IMG/VR virus record: IMGVR_UViG_3300045988_124525
Span: 1-58,303 of that record
Reading direction: 5' to 3' (one strand)
Origin: a virus
DNA length: 58,303 nt
The position numbers and the translations under genes are program-made. Positions 15,395 through 54,412 of the stretch are shown piece by piece. Numbering within the stretch: position 1 is the first letter of the stretch; each line of letters opens with the position of its first letter. The notes under the pieces were generated by a model that worked only from the letters and a program-made list of their open reading frames with translations, had not been told where the DNA came from and made no database searches.

Positions 15395-15422
15395 CTTTGC
15401 GTGTCCTTTATTTTTGGTTTTC

Positions 15423-15914
15423 TTAGTCATCCATGGCACACATATAAATCCAGACCTTGCCTTCCGGAGCGTCATCATCCATGAAGTAGAAATTAATAGC
15501 ATCCTCGATGATCTTTTTCTCAGCGTCCGGGCCGAACCATTCCGTGAACTTTACTTCCTTGTCGTGCCACGCTGAATTTAGCGCAACGTAAACATCCCAA
15601 ATATTAGCGTTGCCCGGTACGCTCATGCCTTTAGCGACGGCGGTTACTTGCTGGATGTTCCAGTGCTCACCCTTATCCTCCCCCGACTTGCCTTTATGGT
15701 GCATTGCCGCCACGTCCATCTTAGCGAAATGCTCATTATAATGAGGACCGCAAAAAACCTCATGTATATCACGTATGGCCTCGTCATACTTCTCGGGATC
15801 TTTTTCCTTTAGACACTCCATCGCCTCGTCCAGCTCTCCTATGGCCTCCCACATCTTTTTTTCGGATACCATCCCTTTTGAGTGGTAATCCTTCATCAGT
15901 TCTTTGTAACGCAT
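15423..15914 (-). CDS. Hypothetical protein
   Basis: 163-aa ORF, the last gene of the minus-strand arm. Confidence 0.6.
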   Translation of the reverse strand: MRYKELMKDYHSKGMVSEKKMWEAIGELDEAMECLKEKDPEKYDEAIRDIHEVFCGPHYNEHFAKMDVAAMHHKGKSGEDKGEHWNIQQVTAVAKGMSVPGNANIWDVYVALNSAWHDKEVKFTEWFGPDAEKKIIEDAINFYFMDDDAPEGKVWIYMCAMDD

Positions 15915-15940
15915 GATCTTGCATTTTAAACATTAATGAA

Positions 15941-16357
15941 TCAAGCGCCGGGAGCCGCTGGAAAGGTAGCGGAAATAGTCAATGGGGTAGCCAAACTTAC
16001 ACCGTAGGCACGGTTACAACACTTGACGTTCTCGGGCGTGACTTGGGTGACGAGAGGGGTAAGAGATATCGTGGGAACAGCGCCAGCGGCCCCGATAAAA
16101 GCTACCTTGAATTGCTCGACCCATTGCTTGGTAACCGTCCTGCAGGATCCCTTGGGCGTATAAGCCACAAGTACGGCGGCATTGATCGTAACCGTCGTTT
16201 GCGTATTCACCGTACTTTGCTCGGCGACGGTGAAATTGACTATGCCGGTAGGCTGTACGCCATTGTCTGCGCAATAGGCCTGACATAAATTCTCCACTAC
16301 ATTAGTCAAGTATTGTTGGCTGGTAGCGGCGATCGCAATTGGTGTTAATTGAATCAT
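15941..16357 (-). CDS. Hypothetical protein (Thr/Val/Ala-rich, Cys-containing)
   Basis: 138-aa ORF in a locally GC-rich segment. The overlapping ORFs at 16014-16288 look spurious. Confidence 0.55.
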   Translation of the reverse strand: MIQLTPIAIAATSQQYLTNVVENLCQAYCADNGVQPTGIVNFTVAEQSTVNTQTTVTINAAVLVAYTPKGSCRTVTKQWVEQFKVAFIGAAGAVPTISLTPLVTQVTPENVKCCNRAYGVSLATPLTISATFPAAPGA

Positions 16358-16379
16358 GATCGTAATTATTATTGATTAT

Positions 16380-16850
16380 TTATTTATCCACATCATCACC
16401 TTGTGGAATAGGTTCCTCTGTCAATACCTCGTATGAGCCGGTCTTTTCCGGGACCGGAAGATTGTAACGCAACAACGTCCTTAGTTCCTCCAAGTCATCG
16501 GTCTCGAACTCGACCTTTCCCTCAAACAGGGAAAGCCCGCCGTTTCTTATAGCGTCCTCCACCACCTTGTGCGCCAACTCCGGGATAGCCTCATCGGGGA
16601 TGCCTTGAAGGTACCGAGCCAACATCGGCTCAACTAATGAGGATGACAATCCGTCTAGCAATGGGGATATCTCCTTGGATATGCTCCACATGGGACTTAC
16701 CCAACCCGTGGAGCGTAACTTAGCGTCTATGTTCGCTATGAAAGGAAGTTGTCCCAACCGAGTTCCCAAGAGACCTTGGATAGCGGGCTGTGCCCACTTA
16801 TTGAGCACAGCCGCCAGTTTTTGAGCGTTAGAGTACATGGTCATCATCAA
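16380..16850 (-). CDS. Hypothetical protein
   Basis: 156-aa ORF with a 4-nt overlap onto the upstream gene. Confidence 0.55.
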   Translation of the reverse strand: MMMTMYSNAQKLAAVLNKWAQPAIQGLLGTRLGQLPFIANIDAKLRSTGWVSPMWSISKEISPLLDGLSSSLVEPMLARYLQGIPDEAIPELAHKVVEDAIRNGGLSLFEGKVEFETDDLEELRTLLRYNLPVPEKTGSYEVLTEEPIPQGDDVDK

Positions 16851-17347
16851 TTACATCCGCAACATCCCGTATCACAAACCTTACGCTGCGGGATCACCAA
16901 CTCGCTCAATGCCGCTAGATCCGCGATCTGCTGTTGCATGCATTTCAATGTAGCGGTGTTAGTCCCATTGTAAACGGCTTGGTTCATGTTAATTGAGGCT
17001 TGTTCCTCCTTGTTCCTGTTGATGATTGTCAACAAGCGGTCATAAACATCCGCCAACTTTTGGTCAGTGTAAGTGTTGGATTTCAACAAGGCGATCTCAG
17101 AGTCCTTAGCGGAAATCTTATCCATCATCCCAGCCTCATAGCGGGAAATAGGCCTGTCTTCGGATGTGATTACCTCAACCGGACCGCCATATCCAGCGTT
17201 CCTTACGTTGCCACAACCACCCAAAAGATTCCCGGCGTTCAATCCCAAGAAAGAAGCGATACCTGCGGAAGCTCCCACGGTGTTGTAATTACCTTGGCCT
17301 TGCCCGGTGACACTGTACTCCTCACCATTCATTCCTTTAATTCTCAT
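16847..17347 (-). CDS. Hypothetical protein (Gly-rich N-terminus, coiled coil, C-terminal CDTGCCGCN)
   Basis: 166-aa ORF, first gene of a four-gene cassette. Confidence 0.55.
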   Translation of the reverse strand: MRIKGMNGEEYSVTGQGQGNYNTVGASAGIASFLGLNAGNLLGGCGNVRNAGYGGPVEVITSEDRPISRYEAGMMDKISAKDSEIALLKSNTYTDQKLADVYDRLLTIINRNKEEQASINMNQAVYNGTNTATLKCMQQQIADLAALSELVIPQRKVCDTGCCGCN

Positions 17348-17369
17348 AACCTAGATTTTTTAATGATCA

Positions 17370-17388
17370 TGTCCGGGTATCCCGGACA
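17370..17388. promoter_or_regulatory. Perfect palindrome upstream of the 16847..17347 cassette
   Basis: tgtccggg-tat-cccggaca, 23 nt upstream of the start codon. Confidence 0.45.
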
Positions 17389-17482
17389 CCACAAAAATCC
17401 AGAGAAGTGCTCTGCTAAATAAATATCTCCTTGCTAGCTTGTTGCGAGGTTGTTGCTAGTTCTTTGCGGAAGGGAATGAGAC

Positions 17483-17509
17483 AAAAAAAGCCCCCAGATT
17501 TTTGGGGGC
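17483..17509 (-). terminator. Rho-independent terminator of the GHKL/STAS cassette
   Basis: Minus strand: gccccca-aaaatc-tgggggc followed by TTTTTTT. Confidence 0.8.
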
Positions 17510-17570
17510 CATAGGAAGCATAAGGATAGCGGTTAATTATAAATTTATAGCCAATAATTCTTCTCCTAAT

Positions 17571-17711
17571 TTATGCAAGGCTGTTTCCAATACATGCATT
17601 GTAGCGTGTTTGGACTAGATATATGTTTTTTCTATCTGAGTATTTATCAAAACTATTCCTTTCTAGGAATTCATTATACTCCTTAGCTATTTTTTCATCT
17701 AAATTTTTCAT
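17571..17711 (-). CDS. Hypothetical small protein (46 aa)
   Basis: MKNLDEKIAKEYNEFLERNSFDKYSDRKNIYLVQTRYNACIGNSLA. Third ORF of the cassette, before the terminator. Confidence 0.4.
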   Translation of the reverse strand: MKNLDEKIAKEYNEFLERNSFDKYSDRKNIYLVQTRYNACIGNSLA

Positions 17712-17742
17712 ATCATTCTCTTTTATATAGCATGAAATAATT

Positions 17743-18102
17743 TTATATGGTAGACAGGAACTCTGACAATGAATCCATGTCCGAAAATTCTTTAACCTCA
17801 CTGTCCTCATGCATATTCCTCGGTTTATTTCTATTACCTTTTACTATTTTCATCATCAGATCTATAGAGTCGCTCTCATTCTCCATAGAGACCCTCACTT
17901 TATCCAAGGCCAAAGCCTCTATTGTATTGCATAACTCATCCGCAAATGATCGAGACATAAAATATACATCCTTAAAATCTATACGTACACATGGGCTATT
18001 CAAATCCTTAGCCCTTATATAGATTTTTTTAGCTTCTGTCCTAGAACGAAGCTCTCCCCTTATCAATTCTGATATCACAATTGTCTTTTCCATGATCTTC
18101 AT
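17743..18102 (-). CDS. STAS-like DUF4325 domain protein
   Basis: VRIDFKDVYFMSRSFADELCNTI is the DUF4325 core motif. ATGA-coupled to the upstream ATPase gene. Confidence 0.6.
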   Translation of the reverse strand: MKIMEKTIVISELIRGELRSRTEAKKIYIRAKDLNSPCVRIDFKDVYFMSRSFADELCNTIEALALDKVRVSMENESDSIDLMMKIVKGNRNKPRNMHEDSEVKEFSDMDSLSEFLSTI

Positions 18103-18998
18103 TCTAAATATTCATAAAAATTAAACATCCTTTCCTCTTTATATGGTATCCTTAATGCCACTATAGTTCCATCCCATTTTATATAATCAGGAAGTCCTAT
18201 ATATGATGTCTCTTCCTCTGACATAAGATGAAACGCTTGCCCAGACAGCAAAAAATATGTTCCTCCAAGTCCCTTAGACAACATTCTCTTGCAAGTACTT
18301 ATACCATAACCACGATTCTCGGTATCTGGTAAATTTTTAGTCGATATACCCTTTCCCGCGCTTTTTAAAGCCTCCACATCGTTAGTTATACCTCCCTTGC
18401 CAGACTTAACATAACTACCCAGTATACTTATACCATTATCCGCTATGCAAATGTCTATATAACTCTTTGACGGATAATACTGAGCAAATATATAACCAAA
18501 TTCACTCTCTGAATGTTCAGATATATTGTCAATCGTCTCAGTCAGCATATAAGATAAAGCCTTTCTCAACTCTCCTTCAATATTTAATTGCCTTATCATT
18601 ATATTCTCTGCTACAGATAGTATATCGTTTTTTATGCTATCCTTGCTTTTACATCCCGGGAACTTTATTATAGGAATATATTTTTTCATAGAAAAATATT
18701 CCATATAATTATGAAAATCACTAACACTGTCAGCTACTACACCTCCTTCAAAATGAATAGAGTCCAGATAGCTTTTAACACTGTCCGATATATTCTTGCA
18801 AACCACATTCTTACCGCACTTATCTCTATAAAGCATAAGAGGCAATAAGAAAAATGGAGTCACAAATGCCGTATATTGGAAGTTCCATATGAAATCATCA
18901 TCATCGGAATTCTCCATTTTCAGGATTATCCTGAATAGATGATTGAAGGCTTCTCCTATCCTAATATCATTTACCGCATGTGGCATATATATTTCCAT
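18099..18998 (-). CDS. GHKL (histidine-kinase-like) ATPase, SpoIIAB/RsbW-like C-terminal domain with an unknown N-terminal domain
   Basis: N-box LTETIDNISEHS, G1 IADNGISILG, G2 ENRGYGISTCKRM. The ORF track starts at a TTG (19034); the first ATG is at 18998. Confidence 0.65.
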   Translation of the reverse strand: MEIYMPHAVNDIRIGEAFNHLFRIILKMENSDDDDFIWNFQYTAFVTPFFLLPLMLYRDKCGKNVVCKNISDSVKSYLDSIHFEGGVVADSVSDFHNYMEYFSMKKYIPIIKFPGCKSKDSIKNDILSVAENIMIRQLNIEGELRKALSYMLTETIDNISEHSESEFGYIFAQYYPSKSYIDICIADNGISILGSYVKSGKGGITNDVEALKSAGKGISTKNLPDTENRGYGISTCKRMLSKGLGGTYFLLSGQAFHLMSEEETSYIGLPDYIKWDGTIVALRIPYKEERMFNFYEYLE

Positions 18999-19151
18999 AA
19001 TGAAACTTTTCGTATACAACAAAGCCTCTGCCAAGGCTGGTTACTTGACGAGGCTACAAAATCACCTTTTACGCCGCAAATGTCGCAAAAAATTTTGTTA
19101 TATGAAAATTTTTTCATAGACAAATCACATGTCTTACAACATAACGCACCC

Positions 19152-19448
19152 TCAGACCGTACCGGATAGCTCCTCTTTGACGCTCTCCACCGTTCTTCTC
19201 AGATAGTAACTCCTCCTTATCCTGTCCGGATACAAATTACGCATCCGGTTCACGGCTTGCCTCGTCATCCCCGTCAGATCGGATATGATATTGTCGCTCA
19301 ACTTGCGATCGGCCAGTATGGTTATAGCCACTCCCCTAGCGTCAACGTTCCTCTCCTTATTGTTGCTAAACATCATTACCGGATCGGTTCCGCACTCCTT
19401 GCAGACAGCCTCTATCACTTTTTTGTAAAAAATTTCCACCTTATTCAT
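19152..19448 (-). CDS. DnaA-domain-IV-like HTH DNA-binding protein
   Basis: NKERNVDARGVAITILADRKLSDNIISDLTGMTRQAVNRM resembles the DnaA C-terminal HTH. Confidence 0.45.
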   Translation of the reverse strand: MNKVEIFYKKVIEAVCKECGTDPVMMFSNNKERNVDARGVAITILADRKLSDNIISDLTGMTRQAVNRMRNLYPDRIRRSYYLRRTVESVKEELSGTV

Positions 19449-19747
19449 AAACTTTTTATTTCGTGGTTTGTTTTACTATCAAAGCCGGGCAAAAAAATGC
19501 ACGGCAGAAAGACATATAAGAATCTTCCCGTCGTGCGTGGCATGAAAAAATAATCAAACTTCCGATCCGATTATTTAGGGAAGATTCTTTTTTTTCTTTA
19601 TCTTCCCTTTCCGGTTCGTTCTCACGAAGTCACCATCAAACTAATATTAAATTAACCATGAACAAAAAAACGTCAACCCTTGTTATTCATATGACGAATT
19701 ATTATTACTAGTTAATAGGGGCTTCCCGGACGTGAGTCATGGAGGCC

Positions 19748-20215
19748 TCACCAAATCCTGCAGAATCCACCCAATCCAACGTAAGGTGATAGTCCATGTT
19801 TCCCGATCCCATAACCGGCAATAACACCTATTCCCCATCTACGGGGGGTGATCGTCTTGGTTATATACTCAGTCTTGCGATATACATCGATGTAATCAAG
19901 ATTAGGCTTATAGCCGGATATTGACAGCCGGTAATCATCCGTCTTGTACTCCTTTTGGGTGATCGGCATAGGAACATATATAGGTTCTATGACCGTGTCA
20001 CCGTCCAACGTGATATAAACAGGGAATGGCTCCGGTATTATTTTTACCAGTGTCTCATAAACCGGGTACGGGATGCTGTCATGTATCGTATCCACCTTGA
20101 TGAACGTGTCGGTCTTGGATATCGAATCACTAGCCACATCCCCCCTGATATGGTAGCCAGCCGTGAAACTGGCTACCAAGCACACTAGTATTAATATTAC
20201 TTTCCAAGGTTTCAT
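19748..20215 (-). CDS. Membrane-anchored protein, possible spanin-like lysis accessory
   Basis: N-terminal TM (MKPWKVILILVCLVASF). ATGA overlap with the amidase gene. Confidence 0.4.
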   Translation of the reverse strand: MKPWKVILILVCLVASFTAGYHIRGDVASDSISKTDTFIKVDTIHDSIPYPVYETLVKIIPEPFPVYITLDGDTVIEPIYVPMPITQKEYKTDDYRLSISGYKPNLDYIDVYRKTEYITKTITPRRWGIGVIAGYGIGKHGLSPYVGLGGFCRIW

Positions 20216-20673
20216 ATATTGCGATACTCCTCCTCGGCATTAAAACATGGACACATCTTCATCCACTCGTCCGGTTCAATCTTACCGTTACCGTTAAGAT
20301 CCGGGGATAGGTCACGATGACCGCAGATCCTACTATCCGGGAACTGTACGACCAAATCCAACAACAGCCTTATAATCGACTGTCTCTGTGCCTCCGTACG
20401 TGTATCATCCGGATTCCCGTCCGGATCAAGACCACCCTCATAGCATATTCCTATACTATTCTTGTTATATCCGGTCACATGAGCCGGAATCAATTCCAAT
20501 GGACGCATAGATACTATCTCCCCGCTCTTCCGGATATAATAGTTATAACCCGCGGAGTTGAATCCTCTCGCCTTGTGGTCTCTCTCTAATTGCTCAGGGG
20601 TATAATCCTTATCTACCCTAGTGGCCGAACAATGGATCACGATCAAGTTGATTTTCCTGTTAATCGTTCTCAT
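20212..20673 (-). CDS. N-acetylmuramoyl-L-alanine amidase endolysin (Amidase_2/PGRP type)
   Basis: IVIHCSAT...GYNYYI...AHVTGYNKNSIGICYEGG...ICGHRDL are T7-lysozyme-like motifs. Confidence 0.9.
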   Translation of the reverse strand: MRTINRKINLIVIHCSATRVDKDYTPEQLERDHKARGFNSAGYNYYIRKSGEIVSMRPLELIPAHVTGYNKNSIGICYEGGLDPDGNPDDTRTEAQRQSIIRLLLDLVVQFPDSRICGHRDLSPDLNGNGKIEPDEWMKMCPCFNAEEEYRNI

Positions 20674-20761
20674 ATCAATTATTTTTTATACTTTTATGCG
20701 CTTTGTTAACCTTGCTATCCTCCCTTGCGAAAGACAGGAAGCTAAAATTTATCCGGCTCCC

Positions 20762-21253
20762 CTATCCTTTTGGATCTGGGGAGCCTTTTTTATTCTTTGT
20801 CTTGTTATACTCATCCAAGAAATTGACCTTACTAATGAATTTTACGGCGGCAACCCAATACAAGAAGGCTATCACCTTGTTATCCGGGAATACCTTGCCC
20901 ATGTTCTTCAAGACATTAGTACCGTAAAACCATATCATCGCCCACGTGATCCAAGACACGAAAGCCTTGGCGTTATCCTCCGATATATCCATCATCACGC
21001 CTATCCAGAACGAGATGATTATGATCAGGAAATAGACTAGCATGTACACCCAGCTACGGATGAACTTGCTCTTCCGGAAATCCCCGTGATCCGCAGCCAA
21101 CCCCCAGAACGTATCGATGAAGGCCAGCGACAGGATCACCACCAAGAAGTTCTCGATCGGTGACACGAAGTCCATCGCCGTGACTACGGCGGCTATGGCG
21201 ATGGACTTGGCCCAGTTAGCGAGGTCGGATATGTAGGAGAGGTAACGGTACAT
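20762..21253 (-). CDS. Putative holin (multi-TM)
   Basis: Four predicted TM segments, immediately upstream of the endolysin. Confidence 0.55.
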   Translation of the reverse strand: MYRYLSYISDLANWAKSIAIAAVVTAMDFVSPIENFLVVILSLAFIDTFWGLAADHGDFRKSKFIRSWVYMLVYFLIIIISFWIGVMMDISEDNAKAFVSWITWAMIWFYGTNVLKNMGKVFPDNKVIAFLYWVAAVKFISKVNFLDEYNKTKNKKGSPDPKG

Positions 21254-21334: not shown

Positions 21335-23530
21335 TTATTTTATCATAATGATATTACTATCCTTATAAGCTAATCCAAATCTTGTTTCATAATAACATCT
21401 GACGTAATATCCAGAGGCATAATCCTTCACATCCCTCATGATTACGTTAAAAGTATTGTCTTTTATGAAATCCTTGCACATCACGGCATTATGCCCCATG
21501 TATCCTTCTGGGGCAGGAAAATACGGATACTCTCCTTCCTCCGCTTCTATTAGGTATATTACGTTATACCAGCTAGGTTTTACATTGTCGCTGTATCCTG
21601 TCAACCTCACGGTAATATCATCCAAGATAACATCACCCATGTCTATCACAGATAGTTTAGCGTGAAGATCATCATTATCGGTATACAAATCATACTCTGC
21701 CGTCCCTGACAGATATGGTCGCACATTATATAGCTCGATCCCGTTCACGATTTTAGAGGACATTCCCGATAAAAGATATCTATTCGTATTGCTTCCATCA
21801 GAAATATTAATATGATCCCCGTCTTTGACCGCTATAAAGACATCTTGCCCTTGCTCAAAATAGGTCCTATCCCCATATTCAGAAATGACATTCTCGCTAT
21901 ATTCTATTTTAGGCAAAACCGGTATCCTTTGATTTTGGAAGCGGTATAATTTAAAGACCCTCTTATCATGAGGATCTATCCCTTTAAGGATTTTCTCAAA
22001 CCCATCTTTATCGTAAACCGTTTCCATCATATTATATCCTCCTTGCTCCGTAACGACGATATTATAGATGCCATCCTCATCCACATTGACAGAGGAAACA
22101 ACCTTACAATGCCCGGAAGTCCACAAAATATCACCTATGTTTATTTGCTCGATATCAACATAGGTGATCTCCTCGGCAACCTCCGGAATCTCCGTCGTGG
22201 TATAATATATCTTTTGACCAGATATATAAGATCCAAAAGTAGAGCAAACGGTACCGTAATAAGAGCCTCTTCTAGTGTCCTGTCCGTAACCTTTACTATA
22301 TAAAACACTTCCCTTATTCTTTACCGCCGAAAAAAAGGAGGAGAGACCACGGTTATAGTAAATGTCGTTACCAAAATTAAACACGGAGCTATAAGGGAGC
22401 CCACTTATAGCCCCACTGTAATATGACAAATCTTGTGAATTACGAGGTATATTACCTTCGGGTTGCCACGTCGTGAAAGTTTTATCTAAAAACGCCCTCA
22501 TCAATCGATCCTCATAAGTCTCTCCAGATCCTCCCGATCCTCCAGAGACCCAAGAACCCCAACCCGATGTGGTACGATATCGGGAGAACATCTTCCCGCT
22601 TGAGGCTATGACTATTTGCACGGTACGGCTTAACTCGGTATACTCCGTCCGGAAATAAGGGAATAATAGAAGTACGCCTCCGTAACTAACTGGTGCGTTT
22701 TGAGGAACCGAGCTCGATATCCACGAGTATATCCCGATATGAGAGATCTCATCTAAATTGTTATCCGAATTTAAACTTCTTCTGTAAGTGAAAGTATTGT
22801 CTACGGTGTTATCCAATATGGATTTTTCCGCAGGCCTGTTCCAATCGCCCCATTCCTCACTACCTTTATACCTGACATACATTCTCCCATAATAATCGAA
22901 GACTTGCTGGACAATTCTTTGTTTTAAAATATCTTTATCTGTGAGATAGGGGAATACGTTCATTAAACCTAAGCCTTGTACCGGGGAATTTAGAGGAACC
23001 TCATCATTCGTCCATGTATAAATTCCGATTTGCGTACACAAGTCTAAATCATTCGATCTTTTTAGGTCCACACGGTTCAAAAATGTTTCATTAGATACTT
23101 CTTTTATGATTCCTTTCCTTAAATTAATCTCCCTAGCGTCCGTGCCAATCCACGGTTTCGAGGAATGAGCTTGCGTAAACTCGTATATACGCCCATCCTT
23201 TCTCACGATATCCCCCGCATTGTACACTCCTTTATCGGAGAATTCAGGGAACTCGTTTATACCGGTAGCCATGTTTGTAGAATAAGTATCCCTTATCACG
23301 TTTCCTTTGTCATCCTTCACCGCTTGTATCGCCATGTCAGCAGAGGTCTTAGGAGTCTCATAATTTACTTGGGATGACTGATCTCCCAAATGGACAGCGT
23401 CACCGTCCACCTCTCCTATTCCCTCTGATACATTTTTAAAATTGCTGTTGATCTTATCGACCATCTGCGCCCCGTTATCCGGAGTCTGACCATTCCTATT
23501 ATCCTTGATGGGTTGTATCGTTATAGCCAT
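21335..23530 (-). CDS. Tail fibre / receptor-binding protein 1
   Basis: 731 aa. Last large gene before the lysis cassette. Shares the motif FSD..Y..G(D/E)IV..G..YEFT..H....WIGTD with 38221..40629. Confidence 0.6.
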   Translation of the reverse strand: MAITIQPIKDNRNGQTPDNGAQMVDKINSNFKNVSEGIGEVDGDAVHLGDQSSQVNYETPKTSADMAIQAVKDDKGNVIRDTYSTNMATGINEFPEFSDKGVYNAGDIVRKDGRIYEFTQAHSSKPWIGTDAREINLRKGIIKEVSNETFLNRVDLKRSNDLDLCTQIGIYTWTNDEVPLNSPVQGLGLMNVFPYLTDKDILKQRIVQQVFDYYGRMYVRYKGSEEWGDWNRPAEKSILDNTVDNTFTYRRSLNSDNNLDEISHIGIYSWISSSVPQNAPVSYGGVLLLFPYFRTEYTELSRTVQIVIASSGKMFSRYRTTSGWGSWVSGGSGGSGETYEDRLMRAFLDKTFTTWQPEGNIPRNSQDLSYYSGAISGLPYSSVFNFGNDIYYNRGLSSFFSAVKNKGSVLYSKGYGQDTRRGSYYGTVCSTFGSYISGQKIYYTTTEIPEVAEEITYVDIEQINIGDILWTSGHCKVVSSVNVDEDGIYNIVVTEQGGYNMMETVYDKDGFEKILKGIDPHDKRVFKLYRFQNQRIPVLPKIEYSENVISEYGDRTYFEQGQDVFIAVKDGDHINISDGSNTNRYLLSGMSSKIVNGIELYNVRPYLSGTAEYDLYTDNDDLHAKLSVIDMGDVILDDITVRLTGYSDNVKPSWYNVIYLIEAEEGEYPYFPAPEGYMGHNAVMCKDFIKDNTFNVIMRDVKDYASGYYVRCYYETRFGLAYKDSNIIMIK

Positions 23531-28266: not shown

Positions 28267-29007
28267 TCAAACAATCCTAGTAATCTTACCGTCACCGGGA
28301 TCACCTCCCAGAAGATGGTTTATGTAAGCCAGCCCCTTCTGGGTTACGAGTACCTTCGTCACGACAAAGCCCGGATGATTCTCCCTCTCAATAAACTTCT
28401 CGGTCATCTCGAAATACCCGGCGTTGATGCACTTCTGTTTTGGCTCGTTCCGGTTGGAGAAGAACACGCCTATTTCTTTAAGCTTCTTGAAGAGGATATT
28501 TCTTCCGAACCCTAATTTCAATATCTTCGCAGCCATACCGATATCAACCTTGTCCGAGGTCTCGAAAGCCTTGTCCGCGAAATCGGCCTTGGGCTGGAGC
28601 TTGCTGATAGTTCTATTTGCCTGTTCTATCTGCTCTTGCTGCTTGGCCGCCAACATCAACGCCTCCGAGAAAGATTGTGGAATCTGGAAACCTCCAGTCT
28701 TGATCTGCTCTTCCATACGGTTGAAAGCCTCAATATAATCTAACTTGAATTGAAGGGCCTTATCACCAGTAAAGCCCATAACCAATAATGTAAATCCATC
28801 ACGATTCATAATATACATTGGCTGCATACGTCCATAATTATCTGGATATTCAGACTCAATGAAAAGATCGGCTGATTTTTCAGCCGATGTCATTAAGTCT
28901 TTGATGGTCTACATAATGTTCTTATGTAATTTGCCAAACTTCTCAGCGACCAACAAGCTGTTCGTGAAAATGCGATTATTATCGCCTTTAAATACTAATT
29001 CTTTCAT
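28267..29007 (-). pseudogene. Rha-N / KilAC antirepressor interrupted by an in-frame TAG
   Basis: MKELVFKGDNNRIFTNSLLVAEKFGKLHKNIM-TAG-TIKDLMTSAEK... is continuous in one frame. The stop (28909-28911) falls in the conserved Rha motif, aligned to NVIRDIEKLL of the paralogue 32198..32938. Confidence 0.6.
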
Positions 29008-32197: not shown

Positions 32198-32938
32198 TCA
32201 AGCAACCCCTTTCTCTCTGATCATATTGGAGATAATATTGTAGATATACTCAATAAAACGATGCTTCTCAGCGATATCCAAATTAGACTCTCCGTTTTTC
32301 TTCTTATAGCTACGAATAGATATATGATATAGATAGTACAATTGATCGTATATCTTGCGCCAAACATCCTGTTGTTTCACATTATGGGCGGAAGAGTATC
32401 TATTAACCATCTGTCTGATCTTATCTCTTAAACTCATTTCCGGTATCTTTTCCGTTGAAACAGGAATAGCCAAAAGGAGTTTTCCATTTTCTTCTCGTTC
32501 TTGTTCTATCGCTTCTATTCGTTTTTCCACATTGGATATCCTGTTCTCATATTCCAAGTTGATGTTAGCTTGCATGGCAAACATCTGTGCGGATGAAAGA
32601 GGTTTGCTTTGCTCTTTCAACGCTTTCTCCATTTCTTCGAAAGCGTCATAAAAATCATTCTTAAACCTTAGAGCCTTAATCCCGTTATATCCCATAACAA
32701 GGATAGAGAATCCTTTTCTATTCATAATGTATACAGGATTACTTTTCCCGGTAGAATCCTCATAAGTATCTATAACAAAGGCTAAACTCATTTTTGAGTT
32801 TAGTTCTTTATCCTCTGTATTAAGTAGTTTTTCTATGTCACGAATAACATTGGCATGTCTTTTCCCAAACTTCTCTGCCACTAGCAAGCTATTAGTAACA
32901 ACTTGCCCATTATTGCCTTTAAATACTAAACTATCCAT
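32198..32938 (-). CDS. Rha-family phage regulatory protein / antirepressor
   Basis: VTNSLLVAEKFGKRHANVIRDIEKLL...PVYIMNRKGFSILVMGYNG is the Phage_pRha pattern. Confidence 0.75.
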   Translation of the reverse strand: MDSLVFKGNNGQVVTNSLLVAEKFGKRHANVIRDIEKLLNTEDKELNSKMSLAFVIDTYEDSTGKSNPVYIMNRKGFSILVMGYNGIKALRFKNDFYDAFEEMEKALKEQSKPLSSAQMFAMQANINLEYENRISNVEKRIEAIEQEREENGKLLLAIPVSTEKIPEMSLRDKIRQMVNRYSSAHNVKQQDVWRKIYDQLYYLYHISIRSYKKKNGESNLDIAEKHRFIEYIYNIISNMIREKGVA

Positions 32939-32982: not shown

Positions 32983-33300
32983 TTACGCCCCATGTTTACG
33001 GATGGAAGGGAGAACCTCTCCGCATACCCAGTCTTGGAATGGTTCGGCTTGCGGCTTGTCGGATCGCATGATTACCTTGTAGAGATTCTTTTCATTGACA
33101 AAATTCATTTGCTGTTCTCTACCGATTGAATCGGTGACCCCAATCCGAATGGGGGCATCCGTCAGTCTTGATTGTACAGCGTCTACACGTAATCCTAAAA
33201 TTTTGCAAACATCCGCAAGGCAAAATAAAGGGTTCTCACTTGTCCCGGCTACTCTCACTTCACCGAAACGATCGTTCTCAAAAATTTTAATTGCTTCCAT
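32983..33300 (-). CDS. BRO-N domain protein (antirepressor N-terminal domain)
   Basis: FENDRFGEVRV...PLFCLADVCKILGL...NLYKVIMRSDKPQAEPFQDWVCGEVLPSIRKHG. Confidence 0.75.
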   Translation of the reverse strand: MEAIKIFENDRFGEVRVAGTSENPLFCLADVCKILGLRVDAVQSRLTDAPIRIGVTDSIGREQQMNFVNEKNLYKVIMRSDKPQAEPFQDWVCGEVLPSIRKHGA

Positions 33301-51831: not shown

Positions 51832-53079
51832 TCACCCACGCATCATCATTATATCCCTCCTCATTTCCACATAATCCCGGTAGCGATCCGGATTATTTAT
51901 GTAATCAATCACCCTTGATATAGCCATGTCCGCTTGGAACTTCTTTACTTTCGTATAATAACGTATCACGCCTTTCGATTTGTCCGAGTGTCCCAAGCAA
52001 TAGTCTATGACCCCATCCGGTATACCTATCTCGGAAGCGTATTGGGCGAAAGACTTACGAGCGGAATAATACACCACCTTTTCCGTTATCCCTAGCGACT
52101 GCGCCAACTTGGATAGCGAACGAGAAAGATATCTCGAAAAATTAGGATAAGAGAACTTATATCCGAAATCCAACCTACCAGTCCTCTTATTCATCCATCT
52201 ATCTATAATCTCCCTCGCTTGCTCCGGTATCGAGAACACGATCTTATTGCCTCCCCTTGTCATATTTCTGGACTTGGCCCTCACATACTCCAATGTCTCA
52301 ACTCCCCGGAAATCAATATCAAGGAGATCTATAAGGTTGATACCCCCAAGATAAAATGACAGACAAAACAAATCATGAGCCACCTTTAACCGGCGCTCCG
52401 ATGGATTGGCCGTTCGCAAACGATTGAAGGAATCAAAAGATATATCAACCTCACGCACAGGGGAAGTCGCTATCTGGAAGTTTATAAATGGATGGACATC
52501 ATATTTCACGAGCCTTCTTTTAACCCCTTTATTGATTATCGTCTTGGTATGTCTCATCATCATGGAGTTCGTGGCCTCCCCTATGCCCTTCTTATTCCTC
52601 AAGAACCGAGAATAACCCTCTATCAACTCGGGGGTAATGTCAGACAGGAATATGTCCCCCTTGACGAACTCGGTAAAATACCGGCAATTCCGTTCTATCA
52701 GCTTCGAGTATCCAACACTTCCGTTCTCTATCAATTCCCTCTCATAAGACGAGCTTACGTCCTTAAATGTAGCGATCTCGCTATCTCTCGTGGAATTCAC
52801 CAGCATGCTCTTTATCTGCACGCATGTATACAATGACTGATTCTTGATTGAGTCAAGCTTGTCTTGATACTCATTAAGCATATTCCTCAATCTTTTGTTT
52901 ATAAAAGAAGCGTCCGGTCTCTTTACGACTTGACCGTTCTTAAACTGGGACTCGCTATCTAATATCACGTTCGTCACGATATAACAAGTCTCTCTCTTGT
53001 GGCAGACCGCCACCCTGACCTTGTGCCTCCCATCCTTGAGAGCCTTGGCCTTGAAAAGTGTCAATTTTAAAGTAGCCAT
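51832..53079 (-). CDS. int: Tyrosine integrase (Bacteroidota phage type)
   Basis: MATLKLTLFKAKALKDGRHKVRVAV is an arm-binding N-terminus. YSARKSFAQ, LGHS and RYY are catalytic-region motifs. Confidence 0.9.
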   Translation of the reverse strand: MATLKLTLFKAKALKDGRHKVRVAVCHKRETCYIVTNVILDSESQFKNGQVVKRPDASFINKRLRNMLNEYQDKLDSIKNQSLYTCVQIKSMLVNSTRDSEIATFKDVSSSYERELIENGSVGYSKLIERNCRYFTEFVKGDIFLSDITPELIEGYSRFLRNKKGIGEATNSMMMRHTKTIINKGVKRRLVKYDVHPFINFQIATSPVREVDISFDSFNRLRTANPSERRLKVAHDLFCLSFYLGGINLIDLLDIDFRGVETLEYVRAKSRNMTRGGNKIVFSIPEQAREIIDRWMNKRTGRLDFGYKFSYPNFSRYLSRSLSKLAQSLGITEKVVYYSARKSFAQYASEIGIPDGVIDYCLGHSDKSKGVIRYYTKVKKFQADMAISRVIDYINNPDRYRDYVEMRRDIMMMRG

Positions 53080-53389: not shown

Positions 53390-54187
53390 TTAAAATCTCA
53401 CGACTTTAGGCTTTTTCTGTAATACATAATATAAAGCCCTCACGCTATCTAGCGGTAAAGAGAAATCGGAAAACTCTGGAGATGGGTTTAGTGAGTGCAA
53501 CGTTATCTTACCCTCGTCCATATCGCAGCCTGTCATCTGCTTTATGAGGACGGATGTCCCAAACACGACAACCCAATAAGGATGATCCTTATATCGCAGC
53601 CCATCTCTCCAATGCGATCTATCCAGCTCCCTAACAAGGACGACATCGCCTTCCTCAAAACTCTCTCTCGTCCCGTTGTCCATGCTGTCCCCTTTAACCT
53701 CAAAAGCTAAATATCTCCCATGGACAATCCGATCCCATTCGAAAGACTCGGTCTCCCAATCCTCCTTATCCGGATCAAGACGATCGCTTTCGTTAGCAAA
53801 CCTGCCATAAGCGCAAAACGGCACCTTGCTGACAGTCATACGATATCGACCATTTCCTAAGTCATAGAATTTAACGCCATTATTATTCTCAATTAAGAAA
53901 TCTCCTTTTTTATCAGCAGACGCAGACACAGCTTCGACAACCACAGGAGAAGATTTTAGCATATCACCCTCTCCCGTAAAAAGCCATCCAGGGTTAACCG
54001 AGGGAAAGGTTGTCAGTATTTTATCCAATACCTTTTTACCATTATCCCTATTTATCCAATTTCCAACGACCTGCCTACTTACTCCTACCTTATCGGCAAA
54101 ATCCGAATTTGACTCACAAAAATGTGTGATAACTTTTAAAATCCTATCTCCGTTAGCTTCCATATTCATATATTTGTTTACACACAT
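53390..54187 (-). CDS. cI: CI/LexA-like repressor (XRE HTH plus S24 peptidase)
   Basis: SDFADKVGVSRQVVGNWI is the HTH. KGDSMDNG and the downstream LIKQM provide the Ser/Lys dyad. Alternative starts at 54169 and 54163. Confidence 0.85.
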   Translation of the reverse strand: MCVNKYMNMEANGDRILKVITHFCESNSDFADKVGVSRQVVGNWINRDNGKKVLDKILTTFPSVNPGWLFTGEGDMLKSSPVVVEAVSASADKKGDFLIENNNGVKFYDLGNGRYRMTVSKVPFCAYGRFANESDRLDPDKEDWETESFEWDRIVHGRYLAFEVKGDSMDNGTRESFEEGDVVLVRELDRSHWRDGLRYKDHPYWVVVFGTSVLIKQMTGCDMDEGKITLHSLNPSPEFSDFSLPLDSVRALYYVLQKKPKVVRF

Positions 54188-54412
54188 CCACTATAAATGA
54201 TGTAGTAATGATTATTCTGGCATGACTCAACAATATCCCGCAATCCTTCAACGACACAAGCTAAAGCCAATAAATTCAATAACAATATATTAATACCATA
54301 TGACAACATAAATAATCATTACGTAATAAATATGGTATCAAGAGATAAAAACAGCATCTTTCGCTACATATATTTTAACAATACAAGCCTCATATAGTTA
54401 AACTATACTTAT

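Follow-up and report, generated by a model that had tools for sequence, protein, structure and literature searches.

A kinase-STAS gene pair related to VapK/VapS in a temperate Bacteroides phage: a candidate phospho-switch carried as interchangeable cargo

Introduction

The locus described here raises the question of what a predicted GHKL-type kinase and a STAS-like partner are doing behind the lysis genes of a phage. It lies in the IMG/VR virus record IMGVR_UViG_3300045988_124525; the window is the whole stretch of DNA that was analysed, positions 1 to 58,303 of that record. On its minus strand three co-oriented open reading frames (ORFs), here called A, B and C, occupy the interval between the lysis region and a block of higher guanine-plus-cytosine (GC) content at 15400-17350. 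The initial annotation took them for an AT-rich cassette of a SpoIIAB-like GHKL kinase, a STAS partner and a small third ORF, proposed for it the partner-switching logic of an anti-sigma kinase and an anti-anti-sigma protein, and recognised no named defence system in the pair. We find that the A/B pair is an effector-less variant of the recently described VapK/VapS-like switch, and that this description should replace the partner-switching one. It is very probable that A and B form a kinase-STAS phospho-switch homologous to VapK/VapS; to the fuller reading, in which this switch is a moron with a defence or toxin-antitoxin-like role, we assign a probability of about 0.5.

The sole functional study of such pairs that was found in the literature is that of Chambers, Rani, Min, Villa and Corbett (EMBO J 2026, PMC13373217), which describes two related systems. 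CapK, with a helix-turn-helix (HTH)-STAS-GHKL architecture, is switched on by single-stranded DNA (ssDNA) of about 20 nucleotides (nt) and phosphorylates CapS, a STAS protein with a winged HTH, on a conserved Ser; phosphorylation of CapS de-represses adjacent immune operons, among them CBASS, Bub, Thoeris and others (PMC13373217). The vapKSC operon encodes VapK, a STAS-GHKL protein of 302 amino acids (aa), VapS, a STAS protein of 116 aa with a short C-terminal helix and the phospho-site S48, and VapC, a PIN toxin. It acts as a toxin-antitoxin-like defence system, in which the VapS C-terminal region blocks the VapC active site until VapK phosphorylates VapS and the toxin is freed, and in which mutation of VapK F54, VapS S48 or VapC D28 abolishes protection (PMC13373217). 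Where ssDNA is predicted to bind, the two kinases have a conserved aromatic residue, F54 in VapK and W68 in CapK, and this position is needed for their response to ssDNA (PMC13373217).

Results and Discussion

Domain structure of A and B

The two genes, and the parts of their products on which the following argument depends, are these (all on the minus strand):

18099..18998: gene A, 299 aa from an ATG at 18998 (MEIYMPHAV...), predicted STAS-like plus GHKL serine-kinase-type protein, VapK-like
18654..18998: A residues 1-115, N-terminal STAS-like domain, beta-alpha-beta-alpha-beta-alpha in the model
18864-18866: codon of A F45, which aligns with VapK F54 (A P48 aligns with VapK P57)
18102..18650: A residues 117-299, GHKL (Bergerat-fold) ATP-binding/kinase domain, assigned from the model, Foldseek and the invariant residues
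18513-18539: N-box of A, ETIDNISEH
18417-18446: G1 box of A, IADNGISILG
18300-18317: G2 box of A, NRGYGI
17743..18102: gene B, 119 aa, divergent DUF4325/STAS protein, VapS-like
17935..17961: B residues 48-56, FMSRSFADE, predicted phospho-acceptor motif where helix 2 begins
17953-17955 and 17947-17949: codons of B S50 and S52
17746..17802: B residues 101-119, basic linker and then a C-terminal amphipathic helix, counterpart of the VapS short C-terminal region

The ATG of B overlaps the stop codon of A as ATGA, and reading the overlap directly in the sequence upheld the translational coupling proposed at the outset. An alternative start of A, a TTG at 19034, would give an ORF of 311 aa (18099-19034); the ATG at 18998 is the likelier start because the homologues are about 296-302 aa long and a 100%-identical database protein has 299 aa.

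Structure searches had been called for on both proteins, and the AlphaFold2 models built on the family alignments gave GHKL and STAS folds, the N-terminal domain of A included. In the model of A (predicted local distance difference test, pLDDT, 88.7; predicted template modelling score, pTM, 0.89), the C-terminal domain finds SpoIIAB (1tid, TMt 0.69-0.77), GyrB, DesK and VraS in the PDB by Foldseek, and with the STAS matches of B this bears out the pairing of a SpoIIAB-like GHKL kinase with a STAS partner. The Bergerat boxes recognised by the initial annotation in the ~300-aa protein are well kept: positions E154/N158/H162, D187/G189 and R229/G230/G232 are conserved in 117-119 of 119 A-family representatives (D187 in 117), and E154, N158, H162, G189, K221, G230, G232 and G277 are invariant in all 119. 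The N-terminal part, previously described as an unassigned domain of about 150 aa, proves to be shorter, about 115 aa, and STAS-like. Foldseek matches it to RsbS (6jhk_A; prob 1.00, TMt 0.54) and to the STAS protein 3oir, and hhalign aligns it with the B family itself (E 2.7e-4), placing A F-V-T-P-F-F over B F-M-S-R-S-F. Position 45 of the A family is aromatic (F, Y or W) in 102 of the 119 representatives, and P48 is present in 107. As modelled, then, A is a STAS-like domain fused to a GHKL kinase domain with an intact catalytic site, and kinase activity is predicted for it.

The model of B (pLDDT 87.7) has STAS domains as its top Foldseek matches, namely pendrin, prestin, RsbS and RsbV (6jhk and 6m36 among them). 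Against Pfam DUF4325 (PF14213) B scores 17.2 bits (E 0.004), under the gathering threshold of 23 bits, and A scores 12 bits against HATPase_c_2, under its 27.4 cut-off; both Pfam matches lying below the curated cut-offs, the domain assignments of A and B rest on structure models and profile comparisons. Partners of A-like kinases elsewhere do pass the DUF4325 threshold, with 41.8 bits in a Streptococcus prophage and 29.4 bits for ORFC of psiM100, and both match the B-family profile; since these homologous partners score above the threshold and match that profile, B is regarded as a divergent DUF4325 member. Some A-family members likewise just reach the threshold of HATPase_c (P0246, 27.5 bits; P0219, 26.8 bits).

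The DUF4325 STAS-like motif that had been noticed in B is FMSRSFADE, and its core proved to be invariant. Across 66 diverse homologues R51, S52, F53, D55 and E56 do not vary and position 50 is always S or T, which gives the family consensus [S/T]-R-S-F-x-D-E; in a hidden Markov model (HMM) alignment the phospho-Ser48 of VapS falls on B position 50. The B sequence FMSRSF is also similar to FMDSSG, the surroundings of the phospho-serine Ser58 in SpoIIAA, where S52 stands opposite Ser58 by eye. The invariant motif of B, with its hydroxyl groups, lies at the site of phosphorylation in VapS, CapS and SpoIIAA. At the C-terminus the model places a helix at 109-117, preceded by a linker of low confidence, and the hydrophobic pattern of this tail is kept while its sequence differs by clade.

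The A family is large. It comprises 331 close matches in 90% clusters, of about 296-302 aa, and of the representatives at 50% identity 4,470 match A with E <= 1e-3, while 357 do so with E <= 1e-30. Almost all A-family representatives are stand-alone proteins of about 300 aa. Existing family resources say little of function: A belongs to PHROG phrog_3364 (E 3.5e-36) and B to phrog_20761, neither with an annotated function, NCBIfam has no match for A, B or C, and a weak Pfam Med31 match on A (E 0.006) was dismissed as spurious. The automatic annotation of A homologues at JGI reads 'anti-sigma regulatory factor (Ser/Thr protein kinase)'.

Relationship to VapK/VapS and CapK/CapS

The sequences of VapK and VapS were transcribed from the supplementary model file of PMC13373217 and compared with the two families. 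A and VapK align end to end by hhalign -glob over 268 of 299 columns (probability 89.8%, E 2.1e-7), which pairs F45 with F54 and P48 with P57, and the A-family profile finds VapK by hmmsearch over positions 113-286 (29 bits, E 3.3e-11 with Z=1). The B-family profile matches VapS collinearly over its full length (14.9 bits, E 1.2e-6 with Z=1), and VapS itself scores 62.7 bits against DUF4325. A PDB profile search with the A and B alignments returned nothing useful, the VapS/CapS entries 9Z7O and 9Z71-73 being undetected; these entries are not in the Foldseek list either, perhaps because they were released after the date of the library.

These comparisons, as alignments of sequence profiles, indicate that A and B share ancestry and architecture with VapK and VapS as a distant clade, and they supersede the earlier remark that no named defence system was recognised in the pair, in that VapKSC, described in 2026, contains a homologous kinase and STAS protein. 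A has the STAS plus GHKL architecture and the size of VapK (299 against 302 aa), and the aromatic residue equivalent to F54 is kept in the A family, from which ssDNA binding by A may be predicted. B is a DUF4325-type STAS protein of similar length (~116-119 aa); like VapS it ends in a short helix and has a conserved hydroxyl residue where helix 2 begins. In both systems the kinase gene precedes the STAS gene, and both occur on mobile elements and near defence genes. The differences are as clear. The cassette contains no VapC/PIN gene, B being followed by ORF C and a terminator; the A/B proteins form a separate and very large clade (the 4,470 clusters given above); the motif of B is [S/T]RSFxDE where VapS has ASPFF; and the A/B pair travels in temperate phages, as a moron placed behind the lysis genes.

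With CapK/CapS the pair shares a GHKL kinase that has an internal STAS domain and a STAS substrate encoded directly downstream, and the ssDNA-triggered phosphorylation of a conserved Ser in that system may be transferred to A and B by analogy. CapK, however, begins with an HTH domain and CapS ends in a winged HTH, whereas A starts with the STAS-like domain and B has no HTH; and capKS lies upstream of the immune operon that it regulates, whereas A/B is followed by a terminator and by variable, unrelated neighbours. The pair thus lacks the defining third feature of vapKSC because no VapC is encoded, and likewise the HTH features of CapK/CapS. To SpoIIAB/SpoIIAA and RsbW/RsbV the likeness appears to extend to the fold of the kinase domain, the STAS-fold substrate and, for SpoIIAA, the motif, as judged from the models and by eye. 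These systems differ from A/B in that the A/B loci have no linked sigma factor or PP2C phosphatase, that A has an extra N-terminal STAS-like domain and stays below the HATPase_c_2 threshold, and that the A/B pair is also found in an archaeal virus.

A conserved two-gene unit

A neighbourhood survey, which had been recommended for the pair, covered 171 loci, drawn from genomes, from metagenomes and from viral contigs. In 167 of them the gene directly downstream of A is a B homologue, and in the remaining 4 the contig ends after A, so that A and B are neighbours in 167 of 167 testable loci. The flanks were examined by a scan of 150 flanking proteins from 43 non-redundant loci with Pfam and PADLOC. 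The families seen twice among these are UvrD/GajB-like helicases, AbiH, integrases and various housekeeping genes. Two of the 150 proteins contain Sigma70_r4, as expected by chance in Bacteroidales, and PP2C is not among the recurrent families; with no sigma factor or phosphatase recurring beside the pair, and with CapK/CapS and VapK/VapS as its relatives, the anti-sigma/anti-anti-sigma logic first proposed finds no support here. No PIN/VapC gene was found among 10 immediate downstream genes scanned one by one, and neighbour sizes and orientations did not reveal a recurrent third gene either.

ORF C (17571..17711, minus strand, 46 aa, MKNLDEK...) had been counted as part of the unit, and was rejected as a third component on grounds of conservation. 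It is present only in phages with a ~100%-identical A and is missing where A is 74-75% identical or more distant, and the copies in close relatives show a 6-nt indel as well as 1-nt indels that shift the reading frame. Scans with Pfam, PADLOC, NCBIfam and PHROGs gave no match for it. To judge from its sequence, ORF C is probably not a functional part of the module.

The contexts of the pair are diverse. It is found between tail genes and an integrase, by HicA toxins and a P22-type anti-repressor, adjoining an amidase and a holin, in a VapE-primase island and beside a SocA_Panacea antitoxin; other copies adjoin HicA toxins, SocA_Panacea, AbiH, GajB-like helicases or BrnT/BrnA. Its typical setting is an accessory region of a mobile element, and a minority only of the loci lie by known defence genes. 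A/B is an obligate, self-contained, mobile two-gene unit.

In PADLOC-DB 2.0, A matches positions 102-249 of one DrmA model of 1750 positions (PDLC02567, E 2.7e-8). Membership in DISARM was considered on this account and rejected; the match is read as an A-like domain fused in some helicases, comparable to P0257, a 1266-aa protein at a contig start (L257, 1-4171) that has a DEAD/ResIII helicase with an A-like C-terminus and a B-like gene downstream. It suggests that some DISARM-type helicases carry an A-like module. A 527-aa A-like form is P0246 (L258, 15-1949), also with a B-like gene downstream.

The same pair reaches distant hosts. In prophages of Streptococcus agalactiae and of S. dysgalactiae, the gene for a HATPase protein of 298 aa overlaps that for a 99-aa DUF4325 protein (41.8 bits), and here the pair directly follows the holin-lysin genes at the prophage end, for example in phiGBSVK-E1 (L253, 41462-42651); this placement relative to the lysis genes is the same as in the window. 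In the Methanothermobacter prophage psiM100 (L252, 7090-8221), ORFB is A-like and ORFC is the DUF4325 protein of 29.4 bits with the motif FMSRSFAHE, both lying within the annotated "inserted fragment IFa"; since psiM100 carries it, the pair is phage cargo on both sides of the bacterial/archaeal divide. In a Francisella prophage, a protein of 293 aa and a 112-aa DUF4325 protein are encoded between CI repressor and integrase (PMC7924643). A-like genes are further found on plasmids of Halobaculum, Bradyrhizobium, Phaeobacter and Acinetobacter, the Acinetobacter copy beside BrnT/BrnA.

An interchangeable cargo in a temperate phage lineage

The lysogeny genes of the window phage that match BF1-TP2, a phage cultured on Bacteroides fragilis, are:

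51835-53034: tyrosine integrase, 94.5% to BF1-TP2
53393-54190: repressor, 72% to BF1-TP2
32986-33300: Ant, 99% to BF1-TP2
32201-32938 and 28582-29007: Rha-like regulators, matching BF1-TP2

Judged by this gene content, the window phage is a temperate Bacteroides phage. BF1-TP2 has the same cassette: A is 100% identical, B and the rest of the cassette fall within a matched stretch of ~93% identity, and the genes are labelled there "ATP-binding protein" and "DUF4325 domain-containing protein".

The 166-aa gene downstream of the cassette is common to 80 viral contigs, which allows the slot to be compared among sister phages. In 25 contigs this gene is 100% identical (L172-L196), and the full cassette is present in 8 of them; in other contigs the HTH gene that lies upstream of A is joined almost directly to the 166-aa gene, or the slot contains different cargo. 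HicA and HicB-like pairs, assigned from translations alone and with no family scan, occupy it in L188 (4949-5811), L235 and L227 (5163-5843). In L180 (4124-5142), a SocA_Panacea antitoxin (78.7 bits) and a 156-aa partner replace A, and B and C remain. The slot at 17350-19150 is a hot spot for toxin-antitoxin and defence morons, in which the A/B pair is one interchangeable cargo. That the cassette is gained and lost whole among sister phages sustains the claim of the initial annotation that it is self-contained and horizontally acquired by a temperate phage. The HicAB and Panacea (SocA-like) pairs resemble A/B in being compact two-gene units gained and lost whole at the same slot, and such pairs adjoin A/B pairs in other prophages; they differ from A/B in having no sequence or fold relationship to it, and any toxicity of A or B is putative.

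Natural variants of the cassette damage A and spare B. A 1-nt deletion at 18765 (in a GG) frameshifts A in L152, and a 1-nt deletion at 18633 (in an A6 run) frameshifts it in L153-L155, B being intact in each; an intact A with a damaged B was not seen among the 171 loci. We regard this asymmetry as suggestive.

Proposed mode of action

We propose that A combines a STAS-like domain, which would serve for sensing or docking, with a SpoIIAB-type GHKL serine kinase, in the manner of VapK and CapK, and that B would be the STAS (DUF4325) protein dedicated to it as substrate. Its homology with VapK and CapK suggests that A may be idle until an infection or DNA-damage cue arrives, and by the same analogy the cue would most likely be ssDNA bound in the groove between the two domains of A, beside the conserved F45. 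Activated A would phosphorylate B on the invariant S/T50-R-S52 motif, and phosphorylation may alter the binding partners of B through its STAS face and C-terminal helix. The lysogen would gain from this through growth arrest, through exclusion or in some other way. Since no effector gene is present in the unit, the output must come from A or B themselves, with A as the hazardous partner and B as its restraint, or from a target encoded elsewhere. A toxin-antitoxin-like or abortive-infection module is the most likely form of this role, to the benefit of lysogen or prophage, because sister phages have HicAB or Panacea pairs in the slot and because A/B pairs elsewhere lie near toxin-antitoxin and defence genes; of the roles that had been listed for the cassette, superinfection exclusion, abortive infection or toxin-antitoxin function is the most plausible, and partner switching on sigma factors finds no support. 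We infer the kinase activity on B, the ssDNA trigger and the defence or toxin-antitoxin role from these comparisons. The loci in which B persists without a working A are compatible with A as a hazardous partner, or with a target in trans.

A bolder version, in which A/B is a complete two-protein immune or toxin-antitoxin system, with the ssDNA-activated kinase either itself the effector that arrests growth or releasing B onto a conserved cellular target, and with B as the brake, is put forward tentatively and is itself rather doubtful. If it were true, such a self-sufficient system would be widespread, with thousands of clusters among bacterial phages, plasmids and islands besides its presence in an archaeal virus, and temperate phages would be using the pair for superinfection exclusion.

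Several observations weigh against the proposed phospho-switch with a defence role. The scores of 29 and 15 bits against VapK and VapS are those of distant relatives and would not be significant in a database-wide search, and with the similarity so remote a shared trigger is an extrapolation. An effector gene is missing, no family occurring in more than 2 of the 150 neighbour proteins; an HTH domain is absent from both A and B in family scans and models; and known defence genes adjoin a minority of loci only. PADLOC 2.0 has no model for the pair beyond the partial DrmA match of A, and B has no match in it. The asymmetric decay of A and B is not significant, with about 4 events in a gene 2.5x longer (estimated P ~0.26), and one of the A frameshifts sits in an A-run and could be a sequencing error. 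Lastly, the Bacteroides-type TAnnTTTG promoter motif was not found upstream of A.

Alternative explanations

The pair might serve the phage life cycle as a DNA-damage sensor, A sensing ssDNA independently of RecA and phosphorylated B tuning induction, lysis timing or the repressor/anti-repressor circuit. CapK and CapS do such a job for adjacent operons; the phage appears temperate by its integrase, repressor, Ant and Rha genes; and the cassette directly follows, in the same orientation, the lysis genes and a small HTH gene, much as the Streptococcus prophage copies follow holin-lysin genes. We nevertheless think this unlikely: B has no DNA-binding domain, sister phages dispense with the pair and have toxin-antitoxin pairs in its place, and its occurrence in many non-phage contexts with unrelated neighbours leaves no room for a conserved phage-specific target. 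A role in counter-defence, B neutralising host toxins of the VapC type or A/B titrating host VapKSC or CapKS so that the phage escapes abortive infection, is quite unlikely too. Antitoxin mimicry by phages is well established, vapKSC operons are present in Bacteroidota, Prevotella among them, and VapS is an antitoxin through its STAS face and C-terminal helix, a layout like that of B. But a simple decoy would need neither an intact kinase nor its strict co-inheritance with B, chromosomes and other mobile elements, and not virulent phages, harbour most of the copies, and B is only remotely like VapS (15 bits).

Classical partner switching, with A as an anti-sigma factor acting on a host or phage sigma factor and B as the anti-anti-sigma protein, takes its appeal from the closeness in fold of SpoIIAB to the A kinase domain, from the STAS fold of B with a Ser in a SpoIIAA-like motif, and from the JGI label of the homologues. 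It is made very unlikely by the neighbours, among which no sigma factor or PP2C is linked and the two Sigma70_r4 proteins of 150 are at chance level for Bacteroidales, by a HATPase_c_2 score far under threshold, and by the extra STAS-like domain of A, which is missing from anti-sigma kinases; moreover, the closest relatives that have been characterised act on a nuclease or a repressor and on no sigma factor, and the pair occurs in an archaeal virus, archaea being without sigma factors. An equally far-fetched arrangement is a type VII-like toxin-antitoxin pair of reversed polarity, with B as a toxin that A neutralises by constitutive phosphorylation and that is freed when ATP is lost or A is inhibited during infection. 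Kinase antitoxins that neutralise a toxin by phosphorylation are known, for example in TakA/TglT, A and B are tightly coupled in translation, and the slot is otherwise filled by toxin-antitoxin pairs. Yet B is intact in L152-L155, where A has a frameshift, and in L180, where A has been replaced; B that is not phosphorylated is evidently tolerated, which argues against B as a toxin kept neutralised by A, and the homologous VapK works on demand and not constitutively.

The kinase-STAS phospho-switch related to VapK/VapS remains the preferred explanation, and its interest lies in what it would add to that group. The work on CapK/CapS and VapK/VapS (2026) shows a kinase-STAS pair plugging a DNA-damage signal into different immune outputs; the A/B clade is a much larger sister clade, which would have sensor and switch with no visible output, and its pairs are morons of temperate phages of gut Bacteroides, of Streptococcus prophages and of an archaeal virus. 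Its target would reveal either a new effector principle, with a kinase or a STAS protein as toxin, or a switch that works in trans, on factors of host or phage. Experiments are within reach, since BF1-TP2 and B. fragilis are in culture and natural sister phages exist that are cassette-less or have toxin-antitoxin pairs in the slot.

Boundaries and surroundings of the cassette

The remaining features of the cassette and its surroundings are as follows:

17483..17510, minus strand: intrinsic terminator closing the cassette, hairpin 17510-17489 followed by T7
18999..19151, minus strand: spacer of 153 nt from the upstream HTH gene to A, upstream edge of the variable cargo slot and presumed promoter region
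19152-19448, minus strand: 98-aa HTH protein with weak Bac_DnaA_C and HTH matches
19748-20215, minus strand: 155-aa protein with an N-terminal membrane segment, lysis region
20212-20673, minus strand: amidase-type endolysin, BF1-TP2 homologue annotated endolysin
20762-21253, minus strand: 163-aa multi-pass membrane protein, holin-like by eye
21335-23530: 731-aa protein, preceding the lysis block

The composition of the cassette agrees with what had been reported of an AT-rich unit of three co-oriented ORFs set between lysis genes and a GC-rich block: its GC content is 0.341, against 0.419 for the whole window, 0.485 for one flank (15400-17400) and 0.451 for the other (19150-21250), and lies within the lowest 5% of same-size windows. 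The strong private terminator was also found again, with a stem of 8 pairs, 6 of them G-C, where 7 bp had been given, a 6-nt loop and the T7 tract, all of which can be read directly in the sequence; the scan found 3 terminator-like sites against 0.9 +/- 0.9 in shuffled sequence. In the spacer upstream of A, scans for sigma-70-type promoters gave matches at chance level. A weak hairpin is present there at 19023-19038 (minus strand; 6 pairs, 3 of them G-C, with a T-poor tail) and overlaps the alternative TTG start.

The minus-strand genes at 19748-21253, upstream of the cassette, probably constitute the lysis block. Between them and the spacer, every phage of the lineage has a 98-aa HTH gene. 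Contigs with the A/B cassette or with cargo such as HicAB have an allele that is 96-100% identical, and in the closest cassette-less relatives the identity is only 47%. Membership of this gene in the module, which the co-varying allele might suggest, was rejected, all phages of the lineage having one and L188 pairing this allele with HicAB; the recombination boundary of the slot seems to take in the HTH gene.

An identical cassette is present in L096 (IMGVR_UViG_3300045988_068611), a contig of 187,621 bp and thus about 3x the complete genome of BF1-TP2 (68,350 bp). Such a length points to a prophage still integrated between host flanks, from which both the attachment site and the host could be learned.

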